The notes under the pieces: model-generated | Seen by the model: the letters and a program-made list of their open reading frames with translations, nothing else | Databases searched by the model: none | Told to the model about the DNA's origin: nothing | Position numbers and translations under genes: made by a program | Shown here: positions 4,113 to 31,352 of the stretch, piece after piece | How the letters are laid out: every line of letters begins with the position of its first letter | Numbering within the stretch: the stretch's first letter is position 1 | Sequence record: PQ843332.1 | Source of the DNA: Escherichia phage P-GXEC-L2P5 | Length of the DNA: 64,000 bases | Reading direction: 5' to 3' (one strand)

Positions 4113-4897
4113 ATAAACTATATCGCGAGGCGACGCGCTTTGACCCATCGGGACGCGTTCGCCTGATTCACATTGACGCGCAGGACGTGGAGCCTGGCGA
4201 CGGCGCGATCGGCGCGGGCCATCACTATTTTCACTACTGCTTTATTCCGCACACTGCCGAGGATATTGCTGCCGCGGGCGGAGACGAGGACAAGCTAAAG
4301 CCCAAATCTATCTTCTTCGGCGGGCAGGAATTCGAATTCTGGCCCTTCGATTTGTCCGGCCTTAACTTCTCCACATCAACGGCAGCAGAACCGCAGCTAA
4401 CCATCGTTGATATTGGCGGCATAATCACCCGGCTGTCGCTGAATCACGACCAGCTACTGGGCGCGAAGGTTGAAATAATCGACACGTTTGCGAAGTTCCT
4501 GGATAACGGGTCGGATCCAGACCCGACGCAAAAACGTGTCCAGGAGTATTACATCGACTCACAGGTTGGGCGCAATCCAGGCAAGCAGATCACCTTCGCA
4601 TTATCCTCACCCGCGGATATGGAGGGGCAAGTAGTTCCCCGCCGCCAGATCATGAACATGTGCGAATGGGCGCTCAATGGGAAGTACGCCAGCGGGGACG
4701 GCTGCACGTGGAACCTTGCGAAGCCTGGCATCAAGTATTACGACGAGCGAGGTAATGAAGTCATCGCGATGAACATGGACCGATGCGGCGGCTGTTTGTC
4801 CGACTGTTATCTTCGATTTGGGCAAGGGCTTGCGGACCCTAAAGCGGCGGTGCTGGACTTCGGCGGCTTTCCGGGGTCCAGATTAATTAAGGGGTAG
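4109..4897 (+). CDS. minor tail protein, lambda gpL-like
   Basis: Intact 262 aa ORF; C-terminal Cys cluster CGGCLSDC; conserved position; ATGA overlap with upstream gene. Confidence 0.75.
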   Translation: MNKLYREATRFDPSGRVRLIHIDAQDVEPGDGAIGAGHHYFHYCFIPHTAEDIAAAGGDEDKLKPKSIFFGGQEFEFWPFDLSGLNFSTSTAAEPQLTIVDIGGIITRLSLNHDQLLGAKVEIIDTFAKFLDNGSDPDPTQKRVQEYYIDSQVGRNPGKQITFALSSPADMEGQVVPRRQIMNMCEWALNGKYASGDGCTWNLAKPGIKYYDERGNEVIAMNMDRCGGCLSDCYLRFGQGLADPKAAVLDFGGFPGSRLIKG

Positions 4898-19663: not shown

Positions 19664-19942
19664 CTATGCGACCAATTCAGCAACCAATAAATCGCAGTCG
19701 GATATGTTGTCGATAACGCGAACGTCAGCACCGCGGCGGGCCATTCGCTCATGTTCACGTACCTGGTGCGGCTTCGGTTTTCCTCCGGGGCGCTTCACTT
19801 CGACGAACACTATTTTGCCGTTGATGATAATAATCAGGTCGGGCGCACCCGCGCGCCCCTCCCATGCCAGTTTTCGGCAGAAGCCGCCAACCTCTTTCAC
19901 CCGTCGCATCAGGTGGCTTTGAATCTTGCCTTCTGGTGTCAT
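19664..19942 (-). CDS. VRR-NUC domain nuclease
   Basis: GAPDLIIIINGKIVFVEVKRPGGKPKPHQ matches VRR-NUC signature (PD...E-V-K). Confidence 0.6.
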   Translation of the reverse strand: MTPEGKIQSHLMRRVKEVGGFCRKLAWEGRAGAPDLIIIINGKIVFVEVKRPGGKPKPHQVREHERMARRGADVRVIDNISDCDLLVAELVA

Positions 19943-20541
19943 TGTCGGCTTTTCCTTACGGCCGCGATGGCCGGTCCGATAAACTTCTTCATTTCGTCCG
20001 GGGTAAACCGGTCCCCGCGGGCTATGTTGCACTCTACGCAGCACGGCACGCAGTTATCTTTCGTATGGCCTACTGCGTTGTCGAGTCGGTCCGCGCCATT
20101 GTCGCCGGTGAATCCGCAGTATGCGCATGGTTGAGAAGTAAGGCGTAGCACGTCCTCGGTGGTTAGGTCGGTGGTTAGCCCCTTCCTTTCGTCCGCCTTA
20201 CGGTACTGAAAGAGCTTATAGTAAGCTCGGATCTCTGGTGTCCGGTGGTTGTACTCACGGCGGGACTTATTAGAGCACGACCTGCATTCTTTACGAATGT
20301 GTGACTGGCTTGCCCGGTTTCCGGGCCGGAAGTTTTCCGGCGTAAGCGGCTTGCGTTCCCCGCACTGACGGCACGTTACGATCTCCCCGGTATACTCTCG
20401 CCATACTTCGCGCGGCGGCGCTCCTCTTTCCTTATCACGTCTCTCTTTCTTATACGCCGCCATGCATTTGGCACACCACGACTGACCCTTGTTGAAAGCG
20501 GACTCATCTTTATCCGTATTACAACGCCCACAATGTTTCAT
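19939..20541 (-). CDS. HNH endonuclease with N-terminal zinc-ribbon repeats
   Basis: Repeated CxxC pairs; C-terminal CAYCG...DRLDN...H...CCVECN resembles HNH core; ATGA overlap with VRR-NUC gene. Confidence 0.5.
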   Translation of the reverse strand: MKHCGRCNTDKDESAFNKGQSWCAKCMAAYKKERRDKERGAPPREVWREYTGEIVTCRQCGERKPLTPENFRPGNRASQSHIRKECRSCSNKSRREYNHRTPEIRAYYKLFQYRKADERKGLTTDLTTEDVLRLTSQPCAYCGFTGDNGADRLDNAVGHTKDNCVPCCVECNIARGDRFTPDEMKKFIGPAIAAVRKSRQ

Positions 20542-20607
20542 ATACCCCCCGAAAAAGAAAACGCCAGACAATATTGCCTGACGTTTCCGCTAAAAGCAAC
20601 ATTTCCG

Positions 20608-23600
20608 CTACTTGCGGTATCGATACATACAATCGCCCTCTGCGGCAAGTGGGAAGCCTTTCGCCCAAATCGGCAGGTCGCACATCAGCGCGCAAAGTTC
20701 CTCGGTCGTGTAGTCGTCAGTGTCCGGCACTTCGGTGATCAATTCATCGTGCACTGACAGGACGATTTCATAGCCCGCAGCTTCAACGCCAGGCATGGAC
20801 CACGCGAGAATATCGCGACACAACGCTTGCACGATGTTCTCCGTAAGTTTGCCGCCGTAGGTGTACTGGAATCCCCACTGGCGCGTCGTCTGATTCTCGC
20901 CCTGATATTTGATGCGGGTACTGGTGCGCTTCTTGCCGGTGTCTTCGTCGATCTCGGTCGTGACAGACAGTGCGATGCCGGGGTAGCTCATGATGCGCCC
21001 CGACGGCAACTCAATTTTTAACCACCACCCCGCGGCGTTCGGGTCGTCGCGCTCCTCGTCAAAGGTTGGGTCGTGCTTCGCCTTCGTACGGACAATCTTG
21101 AGCGCTTTTCTACCGTCCGGGCGAACGTTCGCACCAGCCCAGTATGCTTTGCCCGGATTGCGGATTGCACACAACACCGCGTCCTCAAGCTCGGCCCAAA
21201 AGGCTACCGTCTTCGGGTGAGCCTCACGCCACATACGTTTGATCGCGTCACAAGTAAGCCATACGTTTTTCGGCAGTATGTAAGTCGGGCGCTCGTCCTT
21301 CTTGCCCGGCTTCGGTGGGCGTTTCGCTTCGTTAATGCGGGCGTACTCATAACCGCGCTTCGCCGCCGCCCAAATGTGATCCGGGAACGTGCCTTTCATC
21401 ACGTCCGCCATAGTGTAAAGGTCGAGTCCCAGGTTTTTAGCGAACTGCAAGAACGCCGCGACGCCGCCACCATAGCCCAGGCCAAGCTCGCAGTTATGCG
21501 CCACCAGAAAACCAGACTTAGACGCAATAAGGAACCGGTTTCCGTCTTCCACATCAATCAGGTCGTAAACCGGCTCGCAATAGGTTAACTTCCCGTTCCA
21601 GTTCAGCAATGCGGGTAAGGGCTTCATCGTACTTTCTCTGAAGCTCGGGCACGCTGCGCCGGTTACGGCAGTTTTCCGAACGGCTGACAAACCGAAGGTT
21701 TCCAGGCTCATAGTTGCCGTCTGTATCGATCCGGTCCATTTCGAAGTCGGGATTATCCCAGCCGTCCAGCGTTTGAACGTAGAGAAGAAACGACCTTTTA
21801 TCTCTCTTCCATTCGTCACATACGGCAATCCCACGACTGCCGTAGTTTTTATACCCTTTGGCGCGGGGGTTTGTCGTTCGTGATATTGCCGCTGACAGCC
21901 GGTTGAGCAGCCGCGTTCTGTGCGCATCGTCTGGCATTGCGTCATCGTAGCAAAAATACTGTTTACGATACCGCTTTGTCGCTTCAATTGCGCAGAGGTT
22001 GCATTGGGATGTTTTACCCCTTCGGACGTTGTCATACCCGACGCGTCCTGGCATCGCTCCGCAATCACATTGGGCCAGCAGTTGTCTGTGCCCCTGTCGT
22101 TTTGGTAATTCGCGCAGGATAACCAGGCGTCCATACCTCTCGCCAGGGCGCGGGCCATCGTGCACCTGTCTGAAACGAGTTGCCTTGCCTCCTTCCATGA
22201 ATGCGTCAAGATTTTGTGGTCTTCTGTCATCAAGACCCCGTCCACGTCTATCACTGGTTTCCACCCCATAAGGTGCGCGCCTTGTGTACTCACCCATTTT
22301 TCGCCGTTCCATACTTTATCCGTTGATGTTACGGCCATAATATCCTTGAACCCGCCATTGGTCAATACTTGGGTATGGCGGTGCAAGCAAGCCTTACCGA
22401 TCTGGCGTAAGTCCTTGCGGTTAGCTTTAATGTAATCCGGGTCCAGGCCGAACATTTTACCGGCAGTCTCGCAATAAATATCGCGACCGGCCTTAAACAC
22501 CATTAACGCGGTTTTCTCGCCAGCGACCCAGGCAAGGCCGCGCCCTTCCACGTTGGAGTAGTCCGCGACGACAAACTTCTTGCCCTTAGCCGGAATGATG
22601 CACCCGCGAACGGTCGAGGCGGTTAGCTTCGATATGTCATACGCCCAGTGCGCTGTCCCGCGTAACAGGGAGTTGATGCCGTTGGTGAGCATGTGCGACC
22701 GAACCCAAAACGAGACGTCGCTTTCACCCTCGCGGCGTTTAATCTTCCCTTCGTGGTCGTCGCTGTACTCGCCACGCGCCAGGTTTTGAGGTTGAAAGCC
22801 TTTACCGGCCCAGCGTAGCGTGCGCTTTGCCCCACCATACTGAAGACACCCACGGCGGCGACCATCTGCGGATAAGCCGTTAACTAGCGGATTGTACTTA
22901 GTCGATGCCGTTGATGACGCTCCGAGGCGCATTTCTATAAGCGCTTTGCCTTCGTCGGGGAAGTCCGGGTCTTCAAGCAGGTCGTTAAGTGTGGATTTCT
23001 GCGCGTTGTGGATTGTGAACGCCGGGGCGATATCACGCAGGATTGGCAGGAAGTCATTGCCTGTCAGTTTACCACCAAATCGCTCCCAGGCTTCTTCCTT
23101 CAATTCTTCCTTATGCGCCTGCACCGCTTTGATCGCGGCGTTCGCCAGGTCAACGTCGACGTAGAAGCCGCGGTCGTTAATCAACTGGTCGATGAGCAGG
23201 ATTTCATCTTCCTTAGGCGAGTTTCCCCAGTCCGGTATGCGCCAGTAGACTTCACGCATTGCGATAATATCCAGCGCGGCATAGCGCAGAAATTTGGCCC
23301 ATTCTTCCGGGTGAGTCTCGCGAGTGTAGCGGCGGATTTTGTAGGTCTTAGGGGTAGGCTTACAGAATCGGTTAATCAGCGCCTTGCCTGCCTTATCCTT
23401 CGCGTGCTCTGCGTCAACGCCCAGAACCTGGCACTGCATATCGAGGCTACCGGGCAGCGCGTGGCGAAAGGCCATAATCATAGTGTCTTCGATCTGGCTT
23501 ACCGGCAGGTCAATACCCCACTTCTCGCGGATAACCAGGCGGTCAAACAGGAGGCCGTTAGCCATCACTATTTTAGCCTTCTTGCGGGATACCCGGCGGA

Positions 23601-23796
23601 GCGCCTTGCGCAGTTCACGCGGCATTGTGGGGGATTCAGTGGCATCCCATGTCTGCACGCGGCCCTCGTCTATGGCGTAGGTGCAAATCATAATCTCTGT
23701 GGTTGGGTGCTCCGCGTAGGCGTACGCCCCAACTTTCTTCAGGTCCACCCCGCTAAATGTCTCGGTGTCGAGAAACAGGCGTTCGAAGTCTTTCAT
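20608..23796 (-). CDS. family A DNA polymerase with 3'-5' exonuclease domain, interrupted by an in-frame intein
   Basis: Intact 1062 aa ORF; exo motif FLDTETFSG; motif A VVADYSNVEGRG; motif B split as RQIGKA/intein/CELGLGYGG; motif C VHDEL. Confidence 0.85.
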   Translation of the reverse strand: MKDFERLFLDTETFSGVDLKKVGAYAYAEHPTTEIMICTYAIDEGRVQTWDATESPTMPRELRKALRRVSRKKAKIVMANGLLFDRLVIREKWGIDLPVSQIEDTMIMAFRHALPGSLDMQCQVLGVDAEHAKDKAGKALINRFCKPTPKTYKIRRYTRETHPEEWAKFLRYAALDIIAMREVYWRIPDWGNSPKEDEILLIDQLINDRGFYVDVDLANAAIKAVQAHKEELKEEAWERFGGKLTGNDFLPILRDIAPAFTIHNAQKSTLNDLLEDPDFPDEGKALIEMRLGASSTASTKYNPLVNGLSADGRRRGCLQYGGAKRTLRWAGKGFQPQNLARGEYSDDHEGKIKRREGESDVSFWVRSHMLTNGINSLLRGTAHWAYDISKLTASTVRGCIIPAKGKKFVVADYSNVEGRGLAWVAGEKTALMVFKAGRDIYCETAGKMFGLDPDYIKANRKDLRQIGKACLHRHTQVLTNGGFKDIMAVTSTDKVWNGEKWVSTQGAHLMGWKPVIDVDGVLMTEDHKILTHSWKEARQLVSDRCTMARALARGMDAWLSCANYQNDRGTDNCWPNVIAERCQDASGMTTSEGVKHPNATSAQLKRQSGIVNSIFATMTQCQTMRTERGCSTGCQRQYHERQTPAPKGIKTTAVVGLPYVTNGREIKGRFFSTFKRWTAGIIPTSKWTGSIQTATMSLETFGLSAVRKTAVTGAACPSFRESTMKPLPALLNWNGKLTYCEPVYDLIDVEDGNRFLIASKSGFLVAHNCELGLGYGGGVAAFLQFAKNLGLDLYTMADVMKGTFPDHIWAAAKRGYEYARINEAKRPPKPGKKDERPTYILPKNVWLTCDAIKRMWREAHPKTVAFWAELEDAVLCAIRNPGKAYWAGANVRPDGRKALKIVRTKAKHDPTFDEERDDPNAAGWWLKIELPSGRIMSYPGIALSVTTEIDEDTGKKRTSTRIKYQGENQTTRQWGFQYTYGGKLTENIVQALCRDILAWSMPGVEAAGYEIVLSVHDELITEVPDTDDYTTEELCALMCDLPIWAKGFPLAAEGDCMYRYRK
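21493..22389 (-). mobile_element. intein (299 codons) inserted in polymerase motif B
   Basis: Block A CLHRHTQVLTNGG, block B DGVLMTEDHKILT, block F/G VYDLIDVEDGNRFLIASKSGFLVAHN followed by +1 Cys; removal restores RQIGKACELGLGYGG. Confidence 0.7.
21554..22198 (-). CDS. HNH homing endonuclease encoded in an alternate frame inside the intein
   Basis: ORF 21554-22312 in a different frame from the polymerase; GERYGRLVIL...QCDCG...GKTSQCNLC and GYKNYGSRGIAVCDEW...DRIDTDGNYEPGNLRFVSRSENCRNRR match the common phage HNH family; ATG at 22198. Confidence 0.6.
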   Translation of the reverse strand: MEGGKATRFRQVHDGPRPGERYGRLVILRELPKRQGHRQLLAQCDCGAMPGRVGYDNVRRGKTSQCNLCAIEATKRYRKQYFCYDDAMPDDAHRTRLLNRLSAAISRTTNPRAKGYKNYGSRGIAVCDEWKRDKRSFLLYVQTLDGWDNPDFEMDRIDTDGNYEPGNLRFVSRSENCRNRRSVPELQRKYDEALTRIAELEREVNLLRAGLRPD

Positions 23797-27276: not shown

Positions 27277-27306
27277 CTCTAAAAAGAGGCCCGCTAATAT
27301 GCGGGC
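27277..27306 (-). terminator. hairpin ggcccgc-atatta-gcgggcc followed by T-rich run on minus strand
   Basis: Perfect 7-bp stem seen directly. Confidence 0.45.
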
Positions 27307-27445
27307 CGGATAATATTAATCTTCACCGCCGAGTTGTTTATAAACCTCGTCCGGGTCGTCGCCTCTTTCTTCGCAGAAGGCGGTGAATGCCGCCCAATTT
27401 TCTGCTATGAAATCGAGCATGATTCTCATTTCATAGTCCATGATA

Positions 27446-28040
27446 TTAATCTTCCAGTTCGAAATAAGTTTCGACGATTTCTTTTAGCTCTTTGTGGAAG
27501 TCTTCGACGTCGTCATCTTCCAGCTTAGCGATTGATTTGATCTCGAACGATTCCAGAAGGTCGTCGAATTCGTCGTTCGCATCGTCGTCATCGCCACCGG
27601 CGATAATCGCGGCATACTGTTTGATTTCGTCGCGCATCTCCGCCAGCGGATCGGCATCTTTCTTACCTTTGCCTTTCGCCGGTGCTTTCTTAGACTTAGC
27701 CGGTTTTTCGTCTTCGGCATCGGCATCGTCGTCGTCATCTTCTACGACTTCTTTTTTGGCCTTACCTTTCGCCGGTGCTTTTTTGGTTTTCGCCGGTGCT
27801 TCGTCTTCAGCGTCGTCATCTTCTACGACTTCTTTTTTTTACCTTTCGCCGGTGCTTTTTTGGTTTTCGCCGGGGCTTCGTCTTCAGCGTCGTCATCTTC
27901 TACGACTTCTTTTTTGGCCTTAGACGGCTTCTTGTCTTCCTGTTTACCAACGGCAGCGCCAACGGTTTCATAATGCTTAGCGATGATTTCCAGTGCTACT
28001 ACGCCGCGAGTGATCAGGTTTACGATTTGCTCAAACATGG
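27446..28040 (-). CDS. highly acidic protein with Lys-rich repeats (frame broken by duplication near 27740-27880)
   Basis: MFEQIVNLITRGVVALEIIAKHYE... then repeated AKKEVVEDDD / PAKTKKAPAKGKK blocks and a D/E-rich C-terminus; GGAGA RBS; first gene of the minus-strand operon. Confidence 0.45.
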
Positions 28041-28065
28041 TATATCTCCGATTGGTTAAGTTTAG

Positions 28066-28516
28066 GTGTCGACCATTAACTTCGTCGGTGGCCTTAACAT
28101 AGTGCCAGGTTACGCGTTCTCCCTTTCGGGTAGTGGACCTGGTTATATAATCACGGTTGGGAATCCTGACACTTCGATCCGGCCCCTGCGTTGCCCCTCT
28201 CCAGTTTGCGTCCTGCATCCTGTCGACGAGGTGAATATTAGATTGGTTGCAGAAGGGAGTCAACAACTAATTTCAAAAAAAAAGCGCCGAAGCAAAATGC
28301 GACGGCGCTAACCAATAAGAGACAATGAGACGGGAGTATTATTACACGCGTGCGCGCCCGTTTCAATATTCCAAAGGAGTTGACACCACCAATAAGAGAC
28401 AATGAGACGGGAGTATTATTACACGCGTGCGCGCCCGTTTCAATATCCCAAAGGAGTTGACACCCTGCGGTTTTAGGTGTAGTTTCATTGGTCATTAACC
28501 AACCGGAGACAGAATA
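28066..28516. promoter_or_regulatory. divergent intergenic control region between minus-strand replication operon and plus-strand regulator/primase operon
   Basis: About 450 bp without a convincing ORF; TTGACA (28453-28458), 17-bp spacer, TAGTTT upstream of ATG 28517; AGATTGGTTGCA at 28240-28251; minus-strand hairpin plus T9 at about 28272-28305; internal 77-bp duplication. Confidence 0.5.
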
Positions 28517-28846
28517 ATGAATATCAACGACGCAATCGAAATGCTAACGAAGACTGTCTGCAGTGAGACTAGCCGGTCCTGGGCGTATACCGATGCCGTG
28601 GGGGCGGTGCTATTTGAAATCGAACGTCTGCGACTTACCGAAAAAGAATTGCGCGCCAGGCTGGAATTACTCAACGGTACGGCAGCCAGCAAGCTGCAAA
28701 AGCACAATGAAGAAATGGAAGAATACAAAAAACAGGTTATCCGTCTACGTGAGGAAGGTAAATCCTGGGCTATGATCGCCGAGCTAACCGGAATCAACCA
28801 GAGCACCGTGCGCTCCTGGGTACGCAATAATAAAACTTCGAAGTAA
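28517..28846 (+). CDS. HTH DNA-binding protein, putative transcriptional regulator
   Basis: 109 aa; C-terminal GKSWAMIAELTGINQSTVRSWVRNN helix-turn-helix; coiled-coil middle. Confidence 0.5.
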   Translation: MNINDAIEMLTKTVCSETSRSWAYTDAVGAVLFEIERLRLTEKELRARLELLNGTAASKLQKHNEEMEEYKKQVIRLREEGKSWAMIAELTGINQSTVRSWVRNNKTSK

Positions 28847-28856
28847 GGCAACGGCA

Positions 28857-31352
28857 ATGAGCTTAATTAAATTCGCTGTAACACGACCCGCTAAAAAAGG
28901 CGAAAAAGCCAGGGCGGAAAACTTCCAGATGACCACCGATGAATTTTTCGAATTTATCAATGATGCGAAAGAAATCGCGAAAAAGCCAGGGCGGAAAACT
29001 TCCAGATGACCACCGATGAATTTTTCGAATTTATCAATGACGCGAAAGAAATATCATCGGTGCATATCAACAAGACCGAGGATAAAGCGGAGTATGCGCG
29101 CCGCAAGCGTAAGGCCGATGGCATCGTAGCGTATACCAGTGACGGCTTACGCCGCAAGACCAGCGCGGTGGACCGCTCGATCCTGTTCTTTGATATTGAC
29201 CGCACCGACACTCGCACCTTACGCCGCTGCCGTAAGGCGTTCATTGACGCGGGTCTGGAACACGTATTCCACACAACCACCGGCGACCGCCACCCGCTTA
29301 AAGGCGGCACGCGTTGCGCTCGCTTCCTGGTACTCACTGATAAGCCGGTCCCGGCTGAAGACCTGGGCCGTGTCCAGTATGCGCTATTACATCAACTTGG
29401 TCTGTCGGATGTGGACTTCGACGATTGCACGAAAGACACAAACCGCCTGATGTACCTGCCGCACCAGCAATCGGTTATTAAGTGCCACTACGGCAAACGT
29501 GCCCGCGTCCGTCGTCTGCTTCGCCTGGCGGATACGCTTGGCGTGGAGAAGGAAGAAGTACGCCGCGAGCTTACCCAGGGCGACGACGCAGTGGCGGACG
29601 GGATTCTGGACTGGTGCTTCCAGGCAGGATTCGAGGAGTTATCTTCCGGTCGCGGTTATGAAGTGCCGTGCCCGAACGAACATCTGCACAGCGGCGAAGG
29701 GTCGACGGCTATCATGGTCAAGGATGGCGAGATCCGTTTCAAGTGTATGCACACCGGCAACGAGTGTTGCTCTGAGCTGAACAGACACCAGCACCTGGCG
29801 CTACGTCTTATCGGGATACCGGACCACCTGAACGTCGAGCCGCACAACATGTCACGTAAGCAAATCGCCGCCATCCTCCCAGGGCTGGACGACGAGGAAG
29901 TCGAATCCTTATATGAACATATTGTTGATGCGGTTGGCGACGGCGAAGAATACGGCGTGTGCACCGATGCGGATCTGGATAACGAGCCGGTCGCACTGTT
30001 GTTGATGCAGTTGGCGACGGCGAAGAATACGGCGTGTGCACCGATGCGGATCTGGATAACGAGCCGGTCGCACTATTCAGTAAGCACGACCCGATCATCG
30101 AAGGCCTGGTCAACTTCAAATCGACCTGGTACATGGCTGGCGAGTCGAACATCGGTAAATCGTTCTACGTGCTGGGCCAAATGGGCGCGGTTGCCGCGGG
30201 GATTCCGTTCGGCGGTGCGAAGGTCGTCCAGTCTCATTGCTTCTATTTCGACGCGGAAGGTGGCGAAGCCTCCAACCAGCGTAAGGAAGCATTGCAGATC
30301 AAATATGAGCACGACCTGGACAAGCTGCACATTATTGACCTGCAATCACGCGGCTGGGATATCACCAGCAAATCAGGCTTGCGTGAAGTTATCAGCTTCA
30401 TCAACCGCACCGCTAACGGCGAGCCGGTTGGCCTGGTGGCGTTCGACTCACTCAACCAGACTGTTGCGCTGCGGTCCGCCGATGCAAAACCGTTCGACGA
30501 GAACAACGCCAGCGATATGGGCGAAGTGGTCAAAGCGCTGAAGGCCATTGCGGAAAATACAGGCGGCAGTGCGGGCGTCATCCACCACCCGGCGAAAGGT
30601 GCAAACGGCCGCAGATCTCCCCGTGGGTCCGGCGCGCTGCATGGTGCTGTCGATTCTGCGTTCTTCCTGGAGCAACCGGACGACAACCAGCCAGGTCAAT
30701 TGAACCTGTATCACGAAAAGGCACGTAACGGCATCAAGCAAGCGCCGCGCGGCTTCGTCCTGCTCAAGTGCAAGGTTAAGGTGGATCTCCGCAAGTCCGA
30801 AGCGTTCGAAGCCCACCAGTCCACCAGCACCGGGCCAGACTTCGGCGATGTGGTTGCCGGTTGGGACGTCAAACCAATTGCGTCCACCCCGCGCGACGAG
30901 ACTCTATACCTCGTACCGGTAGCCCTGGCACCGTTCGCGATAGAACAGGCGAAGGCGGCGGGCAAAGCCGCAGTTAAGGAAGAGAACACCGCCGGTCCGC
31001 GCAACGAAAAAGAGAAAGTGCTTTATGCGGCCCTGGAAAAACTGATGGCAGATAACCCTGACCATACTGGATTCAGTAAATCGGCAATTGTACGCCAGGC
31101 GGGACTCGCTAAGGGTGGCACTTCGACGAAGGCAATAGACGATATGGTCGAGCGCGGCGTGATTGGTTTCTATACAGATCCGCACACCGGGGCCATATAT
31201 GGGTCGTCGAATTTAGTCATCAAATCTGATATCCCCTGATTGGTTTCTATACAGACCCGCACACCGGGGCCATATATGGGTCGTCGAATTTAGTCATCAA
31301 ATCGGAGATCCCCATAACGCTTTCGGCGACCGATGACGACCTGAAAGACTAA
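28857..31352 (+). CDS. primase-helicase: primase-polymerase-like N domain, zinc-binding region, RecA-like C domain (frame broken by duplications near 28910-29050, 29940-30070 and 31170-31290)
   Basis: ILFFDIDR and VFHTTTGDRH primase-like motifs; Cys/His cluster; Walker A GESNIGKS and Walker B VAFDSLN. Confidence 0.7.

Follow-up and report, generated by a model that had tools for sequence, protein, structure and literature searches.

The locus considered here occupies the minus strand at positions 27446–28040 of the window, by which we mean the whole stretch of DNA that was analysed (64,000 bp). It holds a copy of the gene known as EP23p44 in Shigella phage EP23 (p44 in the following), in which the reading frame is broken, so that a continuous open reading frame is absent from 27446–28040 in the window. 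The individual features of this copy are:

27446–28038, minus strand: EP23 p44 ortholog (phrog_3127), frame-broken, 593 nt; the true gene has 516 nt and encodes 171 aa
28046–28049, minus strand: Shine-Dalgarno sequence GGAG with a 7-nt spacer to the ATG, favouring the short 171-aa start
28038–28036, minus strand: start codon ATG
27967–28038, minus strand: codons 1–24, conserved N-terminal amphipathic helix (MFEQIVNLITRGVVALEIIAKHYE)
27662–27966, minus strand: charged disordered linker including an artefactual extra unit; naturally aa 25–100
27762–27915: artefactual 77-nt tandem duplication (copies 27762–27838 and 27839–27915)
27833–27840, minus strand: A8 run, G GTA AAA AAA AGA, with A_AAA_AAG in the zero frame; the frame is lost here
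27823–27825, minus strand: TAG stop that, owing to the duplication, ends the frame-0 product early (71 aa)
27446–27661, minus strand: conserved acidic C-terminal domain, aa 101–171 plus stop, net charge −20
27448–27446, minus strand: stop codon TAA

Translated from the ATG, frame 0 begins MFEQIVNLITRG and ends after 71 aa as ...APAKGKKKKS* (TAG at 27825–27823); the remaining 129 codons (KEVVEDDD … YFELED*) sit in the −1 frame and run to the TAA at 27448–27446. The A8 run falls exactly at the junction of the two 77-nt copies, which are 76/77 identical (1 mismatch in the best register), and TRF gives a matching period-77 array at 27762–27915. Aligned with EP23 and WFI, the window carries a 77-nt insertion at the A8 point, and the duplication is absent from both of these phages. 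Removing either 77-nt copy yields a 516-nt ORF with a product 100% identical to EP23p44 (171 aa). Once the 77 nt are removed, the locus thus matches EP23 gp44 (YP_004957480.1, ‘hypothetical protein’) in product, position and transcription signals; what the window adds to it, i.e. the 77 nt, the A8 run and the premature stop, are assembly errors and not variation. The natural contigs that we examined all encode intact proteins of 142–179 aa. We therefore regard it as nearly certain that the locus is EP23p44 with an untrimmed 77-nt overlap. This overlap adds a spurious third repeat unit, forms the A8 run and breaks the p44 frame. Accordingly, the protein of ~160 aa described in the first-pass annotation does not exist as such, the ORF of the window being broken and the real protein measuring 171 aa, and the string PAKTKKAPAKGKK quoted there was read across the artificial junction, where the natural sequence is PAKTKKAPAKGKAKKEVVEDDD. 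The assembly-induced frameshift at A8 had passed unnoticed in that annotation.

The duplication within p44 is one of many in the window. A 1.8-kb query around the locus matched 174 phage records, nearly all of them from Escherichia/Shigella Dhillonvirus, the nearest being EP23 with 99.4% identity. When the entire window (64,000 bp, compared to 44,077 bp for the EP23 genome) was aligned with EP23 by BLAST, its collinear blocks were found to circle the EP23 genome ~1.45 times, and at 68 block junctions the EP23 coordinate steps back by ~77 nt (exactly 77 nt at 55 of the 68 junctions; 74–79 nt at the remainder). At least 48 of the back-step junctions lie wholly within coding sequences, and the genes hit include those for the portal (five junctions), major head, terminase, tape measure, DNA primase-helicase and endolysin. 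Comparison of the window with itself gave 76 tandem duplications with a period of exactly 77 (each with 74–77 matches out of 77) and not a single one with another period in the range 30–199. The identity of the blocks to EP23 varies from 86% to 100% along the window, and the tail genes, which are crossed twice, are only ~91% alike in the two passes. A k of 77 is a common top k-mer size of SPAdes for short reads, and the exact 77-nt periodicity of all duplications is the signature of untrimmed overlaps at k = 77. A phage with this genome would moreover not be viable, since dozens of its essential genes would contain 77-nt insertions, each causing a frame shift of 2. We infer that the window is a path through the de Bruijn graph of a strain-mixed assembly (mixed Dhillonvirus, HK578-like coliphages), in which overlaps were joined untrimmed. 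The frame break, the third repeat and a duplicated upstream promoter in the window are assembly artefacts. The main value of the analysis lies in this warning: frameshifts, tandem repeats, duplicated promoters and split genes spaced by 77 nt are all spurious throughout the window, because it is an untrimmed, chimeric assembly-graph path.

Taken by itself, the break could be read as a programmed −1 ribosomal frameshift of the dnaX type (A_AAA_AAG) or as transcriptional slippage, giving rise to products of 71 and 197 aa. Indeed, the slippery heptamer is present in the zero frame at 27833–27840, a 0-frame stop follows two codons past it, and the repeat pattern carries on exactly in the −1 frame after the A8 run. 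However, the heptamer is found only at the junction of the 77-nt duplication, which is one of 76 such duplications, including those in the portal, capsid and terminase genes, and its length equals the k-mer size at which SPAdes usually tops out with short reads. Also, EP23, WFI and all other relatives examined read GGTAAGGCCAAAAAAGAAG at this point and do so without a frameshift, i.e. the site is not conserved. We consider the chance of programmed recoding to be practically nil: the A8 run is a duplication-junction artefact and not a natural slippery site, and frameshifting or slippage at this position is ruled out.

The real gene is embedded in a compact transcription unit, for which the following elements were located in the window:

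28235–28263, minus strand: sigma70-type promoter TTGACT-17-TAATAT, driving p44; nearly invariant in 9 Dhillonviruses
28039–28230, minus strand: 5′ leader of ~190 nt, open in frame by chance
27316–27441, minus strand: EP23p43, small acidic ORF of 41 aa (phrog_15754), co-transcribed with p44; accessory
27288–27307, minus strand: intrinsic terminator GGCCCGC-loop-GCGGGCC with T-tract, closing the p44-p43 transcription unit

The first-pass annotation had called the gene the promoter-proximal first gene of a minus-strand block, and this is confirmed by the ATG with its Shine-Dalgarno sequence and by TTGACT-17-TAATAT at 28263–28235. In EP23, where the region is undisturbed, the divergent intergenic region upstream of p44 has a length of 402 nt. 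Moving toward p44, a strong promoter (TTGAAA-17(TG)-AATAAT) comes first, followed by ~60 nt closing in a GC-rich hairpin with T11 (fold z = −3.3), and then by the second promoter TTGACT-17-TAATAT, the ~190-nt leader, the Shine-Dalgarno sequence and the ATG. Promoters, hairpin and Shine-Dalgarno sequence are almost invariant across nine Dhillonviruses; ~140 nt of the leader are absent in two of the nine, and p43 is missing from several relatives. In some GenBank records a form of 231–239 aa is annotated, which reads through the in-frame leader from MQDANW... (EE09, Opt212, PEC9). We rejected this long start: it has no Shine-Dalgarno sequence, distant homologues begin at the N-terminal helix, and the two relatives without the ~140 nt of leader indicate that the in-frame upstream extension is non-coding. 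As an RNA, the leader gave no Rfam match and no sign of unusual folding (fold z = 0.05).

The natural gene is already known, as EP23p44 and hundreds of orthologs are catalogued in GenBank and in an uncharacterised PHROG family. The 171-aa protein matches the profile of phrog_3127 (‘unknown function’) with E = 6.3e-53 over residues 1–171 (profile positions 1–178 of 178), and distant family members match this profile, too. Searches of Pfam, NCBIfam, PADLOC and PDB sequences returned compositional noise only (e.g. BUD22, TonB, FlhF; in Pfam none above noise at E ≤ 1), in line with the first-pass statement that evidence for a specific family is lacking at the sequence level; the protein belongs to no functionally characterised family. 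A sequence search with the p44 protein collected 152 clusters of 115–239 aa, a search with the C-domain profile against 1.84 billion proteins 41 clusters at 50% identity, and a search with the full-length profile 813 clusters at 90% identity. The names carried by family members are automatic ones only, e.g. "TonB" or "hypothetical".

Three parts can be distinguished in the protein. The N-terminal helix has the consensus MLxKFLxLLERFVVAHELIAA, and L8, R11, V13, A15, E17, I19 and A20 are invariant in 41 aligned relatives with identities down to 42%. It had been described as a short hydrophobic helix; a helix is indeed predicted, but it is amphipathic with a mean hydrophobicity of 0.3. For the same reason a TonB/TolA-like membrane anchor was discarded, as the helix conserves R11, E17 and H/K and the protein has no signal sequence or transmembrane segment. 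The linker that follows is 27–99 aa long and ~50% charged, with K+R ≈ D+E (medians 16 and 16; 146 members), and a basic K/A/P patch adjoining the C-domain is kept even in the members with the shortest linkers. The C-domain of ~70 aa is characterized by the motif LRDEI…G D.D…D.FDDLLE.F.[IV]K.[IV].KL.D.DV..FH..LK.IV..Y[FY], and its net charge has a median of −19 with a family range of −3 to −21. In EP23p44 itself 51 acidic and 29 basic residues add up to a net charge of −22 (linker −1, C-domain −20), so the alternating basic and acidic blocks and the D/E-rich C-terminus noted from the window sequence are real. This does not hold for the weight that had been put on the Lys-rich repeats as the key feature of the protein, as they are its least conserved part, some natural members having linkers of no more than 27–34 aa, and one of the three units in the window is artificial. 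The 171-aa protein contains two natural units, KAKKEVVEDDD...PAK.KKAPAKGK, starting at aa 40 and 67, and a 122-aa form (on contigs of ~44.8 kb) as well as a 115-aa form do without the acidic/basic repeat units altogether. Given these natural short forms, the Lys-rich repeats are an adjustable spacer and not the functional core.

The first-pass annotation had proposed structure prediction as a check, and the outcome was divided. For the full-length 171-aa form the AF2 model was poor (pLDDT 46). With a short-linker member and a more diverse alignment, the C-domain was predicted as a three-helix bundle with pLDDT values of 81–89; the N-terminal helix was predicted in the same model, but placed without confidence (pTM 0.54). 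A Foldseek search against viral models (BFVD) retrieved family members, an entry of Salmonella phage MB78 called "13.88 kDa late protein" (E = 6e-4) and, more weakly, uncharacterised phage proteins. Neither profiles nor folds matched Ocr, ArdA, Gam or other mimics, the fold matches obtained being generic only.

With respect to its genomic surroundings, p44 is the first gene of a block encoding a DUF2800 nuclease, an Enc34/Gp2.5-type SSB, PolA and an SNF2 helicase, and it is divergent from the genes for an HTH protein and an AAA_25 primase-helicase. This gene order is kept in EP23, WFI and EE09, in relatives at 35–59% identity, in metagenomic contigs and in Guernseyvirinae (e.g. Salmonella phage vB_SenTO17), and 14 of 14 divergent loci (35–75% identity) show it. 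The divergence rate of p44 is comparable to that of the replication enzymes of the block. By tblastn we found p44 in 385 phage records, comprising phages of Escherichia, Salmonella, Klebsiella, Serratia and Edwardsiella; when species-representative bacterial genomes were scanned for close relatives, no bacterial or prophage copies turned up, which is a weak negative. The anti-Tmn protein of Dhillonvirus is a separate gene (ORF35) with an alpha/beta fold (PMC11846954).

Evidence at the protein level is available from the Dhillonvirus vB_EcoS-EE09 (EE09), where only four phage proteins could be detected at 25 min in infected cells, one of which was CDS56, while the 24 proteins of cell-free lysates do not include it (PMC10673088). 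We verified that CDS56, which is annotated with the long start, is the p44 ortholog. As it is seen in infected cells and missing from the lysate list, the p44 protein is non-structural and abundant in infected cells. A role in the virion, named in the first-pass annotation as the finding that would overturn its proposal, did thus not emerge from these proteomic data (PMC10673088). Expression early in infection is inferred from the sigma70-type, i.e. host-type, promoter alone.

Taken together, the explanation that we favour overall is that of an artefact-broken EP23p44, the natural product of which would be an accessory of the replication-recombination module, and we assign it a probability of about 0.5. 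How such an accessory might work can be put forward more tentatively. The p44 protein would serve the DUF2800/Gp2.5-SSB/PolA module as a stoichiometric accessory or adaptor whose C-domain docks on a conserved partner (the nuclease, SSB or polymerase of the module, or a host enzyme that processes DNA ends), whose N-terminal helix self-associates, and whose flexible, charged polyampholyte linker would provide reach and a weak, electrostatically switchable contact to DNA. In the acidic tails of T7 gp2.5 and E. coli SSB and in hubs of the PopZ type an acidic module hangs on a disordered linker, which connects it with an element for oligomerisation or DNA contact. The p44 protein would follow the same electrostatic adaptor logic; unlike in these proteins, its acidic part is a predicted three-helix domain and not a tail. 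The core status of the gene across phage genera with different hosts is more easily reconciled with an accessory of the module than with anti-restriction directed at a particular host.

Among the other functions that were weighed, an inhibitor resembling Gam or gp5.9 comes closest, although we think it unlikely. Here the acidic, helical C-domain would mimic DNA or obstruct the DNA channel of a host exonuclease such as RecBCD, and would thereby protect the linear replication and recombination intermediates that the neighbouring DUF2800 nuclease and the Gp2.5-type annealase produce. Such a function would bear out part of the DNA-mimic idea of the first-pass annotation. Inhibitors of the Gam/gp5.9 type also sit just upstream of a recombination nuclease, and the position of p44 upstream of a recombination nuclease and an annealase indeed parallels gam-bet-exo of lambda and 5.9-6 of T7. 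Lambda Gam, T7 gp5.9 and Mu-Gam-like proteins are also small, helical and non-structural, gp5.9 shares with the p44 C-domain a very acidic character, and the net charge of −20 and the all-helical model predicted for this domain as well as the non-virion, intracellular occurrence of the protein would suit an inhibitor. Mu-Gam-like, sipho_gp157, DUF2483 and DUF1351 genes are found at the equivalent upstream position of other annealase modules, e.g. those with erf or sak4, and analogous functions have been suggested for such upstream genes (PMC8093625), which is a further parallel. Adjacency to a recombination nuclease or annealase holds for Gam and gp5.9 and for non-inhibitor accessory genes alike. 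However, p44 has no sequence, profile or fold similarity to Gam or gp5.9, searches of Pfam and of PDB sequences linked it to no mimic, it is tripartite with a long disordered linker, the acidity of its C-domain is variable (−3 to −21 in the family and ~−2 in a Streptococcus analogue), and a protein titrating a low-copy enzyme would not need to be highly abundant.

The first-pass annotation had pointed to a resemblance to early anti-restriction or host-takeover proteins; such a protein might act either on the nucleoid via histone-H1-like Lys/Ala/Pro repeats or as an anti-restriction DNA mimic of the Ocr/ArdA type. The promoter, the gene position and the intracellular, non-virion nature of the product agree with that comparison; the lack of a mimic match, the core status of the gene and the variable repeats do not. 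K/A/P-rich blocks similar to the tails of H1, Hc2 and HupB are present, 4 of 146 members contain AT-hook-like RGRP motifs, the protein is very acidic overall, and p44, like the genes of Ocr and ArdA, which are acidic as well, comes first behind a strong host-type promoter. However, a conserved net-basic K/A/P tract, as in histone-H1-like or AT-hook proteins, was not found, the linker having a net charge of −1 and a length that varies between 27 and 99 aa. Since the repeats are net-neutral and can be dispensed with (see the 122- and 115-aa forms), and since p44 is no accessory gene, an action through the repeats is less likely. Ocr and ArdA are compact, rigid mimics without basic repeats, no family or fold match links p44 to known mimics, and p44 is core to a replication module and syntenic in phages of E. 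coli, Salmonella, Klebsiella, Serratia and Edwardsiella, unlike typical anti-defence genes. DNA mimicry by the acidic C-domain is possible; early host takeover or anti-restriction we find improbable as explanations of p44. Even less credit, hardly any in fact, can be given to a structural or assembly function in the virion: the neighbour named ‘13.88 kDa late protein’ from Salmonella phage MB78 in BFVD would speak for it, but the ortholog is absent from the 24 EE09 lysate proteins in spite of its detection in infected cells, and the gene is part of the replication block, a long way from the genes for morphogenesis.

Returning to the favoured reading as a module accessory, we asked what stands next to the nuclease in other phages. 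The Cas4-like DUF2800 nuclease was found in 1126 phage records from many phyla, and a duf2800-gp2.5-polA module has been noted before (PMC8093625). Several proteins encoded upstream of DUF2800 resemble p44 in gene position and in the order of their parts, i.e. N-terminal helix, charged or Pro-rich linker and helical domain of ~60 aa (PBC1 gp27; the Firmicute ‘rrp5’/phrog_408 proteins; APSE-1 P53), and the pattern R..[LI]...G...[LV]L..[FY]...KL..[VL]D...[FY] is common to p44 and these analogues. Gp27 of Bacillus phage PBC1 (phrog_36047), directly upstream of DUF2800, has an N-terminal helix, a charged linker and two like-patterned helical domains; it matches the family profile in hhalign with E = 4.9e-5 (probability 68%) as well as phrog_18562 and phrog_22695, both of which are also matched by members of phrog_3127. 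In the Streptococcus phage Javan630 a protein of the 105-aa Firmicute family with the same three-part design is found upstream of DUF2800 and is linked to phrog_408, 3709, 18562 and 22695, so that the PHROG cross-links form the chain 3127-18562-22695-3709-408. The C-terminus of APSE-1 P53 matches phrog_3127 with E = 1.8e-3. The proteins upstream of DUF2800 in Bacteroides, Acidovorax, Rhodobacter and Caulobacter phages look similar in architecture, with no significant matches, and the direct profile-profile comparison of our family with the Firmicute 105-aa family by hhalign was not significant (probability 3.8%). For this last reason, a wider superfamily, resting on position, architecture and weak transitive HMM matches, is suggested, not established. 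The analogues, some of which have two C-domains, also differ from p44 in not being markedly acidic: by hand count the C-domain of the Streptococcus analogue has a charge of ~−2, and the remote analogues as a group have not kept the strong acidity.

If the similarities hold, the p44 C-domain might represent one lineage of an unrecognised cross-phyla family and thereby a ‘fourth component’ of the duf2800-gp2.5-polA module in phages of Gram-negative and Gram-positive hosts, either as a Gam-like protector or as an adaptor between nuclease, annealase and polymerase; at present we see this as speculative and somewhat doubtful. The remaining interest of the locus lies in the possibility that p44 is an overlooked, conserved part of a very widespread phage replication-recombination module. 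Already within the enterobacterial siphophages (Dhillonvirus, Guernseyvirinae) it is a core, highly expressed, non-structural gene of the module in hundreds of phages, and possibly far beyond. A role for p44, be it as module adaptor or as Gam-like inhibitor, would fill a gap in the understanding of the duf2800-gp2.5-polA module and could matter for recombineering tools and therapeutic phage engineering. Finally, the label ‘DNA recombination nuclease inhibitor gamma’ given in some records is attached to the neighbouring HTH gene (p45 ortholog) and not to p44, and it looks like a mis-annotation.

The window is an untrimmed, chimeric assembly-graph path. It spans ~1.45 genome lengths and contains 76 exact 77-nt tandem duplications (e.g. 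at 295, 410, 1219 ... 63544); the two passes over the same part of the genome share ~91% identity, and strain switches coincide with duplication junctions. Any repeat or frameshift with a 77-nt spacing that is reported from the window is therefore suspect. The features discussed here are:

19939-20571, minus strand, HNH-type endonuclease ORF, 210 aa (…CAYCGF…HTKDNCVPCCVECN…)
20608-23796, minus strand, DNA polymerase A, 1062 aa
25253-26760 and 29006-31239, DUF2800 exonuclease and primase-helicase ORFs, split or overlapping
27316-27441, minus strand, p43, a strongly acidic 41-aa ORF co-transcribed with the gene
28039-28230, leader of the gene, ~190 nt, open in frame with it
28275-28464, second promoter-terminator unit upstream of the gene's own promoter (4392-4490 in the EP23 locus, L001)
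28517-28846, plus strand, 109-aa gene divergent from the gene under study

The split or overlapping state of the exonuclease and primase-helicase ORFs, with their repeated peptides (KAHPKAPKGGVLVNDDMVKQCDAYI and CTDADLDNEPVAL), results from the 77-nt artefact at ~26334, 28895, 29919 and 31160. Likewise, the window holds two copies of the second promoter solely because of a 77-nt artefact (28311-28464). The promoter itself, TTGAAA-17-TG-AATAAT, is nearly invariant and lies 5' of the gene's own promoter. About 60 nt further on, a hairpin (28309-28283) followed by T9 forms a strong intrinsic terminator, with a fold z of -3.3. The unit, in the divergent intergenic region, is a candidate for a small RNA, or for an origin or regulatory transcript.

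Because the gene's reading frame continues upstream through the leader without a stop, several GenBank phages carry over-long annotations of 231-239 aa, among them EE09 CDS56, Opt212 gp20 and PEC9_54; ~140 nt of the leader form an indel that is missing in two relatives. The divergent 109-aa gene has been annotated variously as 'transposase', 'resolvase' and 'DNA recombination nuclease inhibitor gamma'. Its product is an HTH_23/sigma70-region-4-type DNA-binding protein with an N-terminal coiled-coil, and is more likely a regulator or origin-binding partner of the adjoining primase-helicase. Some Dhillonviruses carry p43 and others, nearly identical apart from this, lack it. In size and charge, p43 resembles small inhibitor proteins.

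The C-terminal helical domain occurs in two tandem copies in some members of the EP23 p44 family (P0122, P0123 and P0131) and in an analogue, Bacillus phage PBC1 gp27 (L040, 3282-3971), which indicates that this domain is the functional unit that is mobile in evolution. Among the viral structure models of BFVD, Q9T1Z8 of Salmonella phage MB78 is both a structural and a sequence neighbour (31% identity, E = 6e-4). Its name there is '13.88 kDa late protein', which, should it have an experimental basis, is at odds with an 'early' label.

DNA polymerase A appears to contain an intein, with the edges ...GKA/CLHRHTQVLT... (N-terminal) and ...FLVAHN/C (C-terminal); the EP23 polymerase is of equal length. 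Just upstream of the polymerase gene, the HNH ORF fills a ~665-nt segment that is not present in EP23 and is probably a homing endonuclease insertion.
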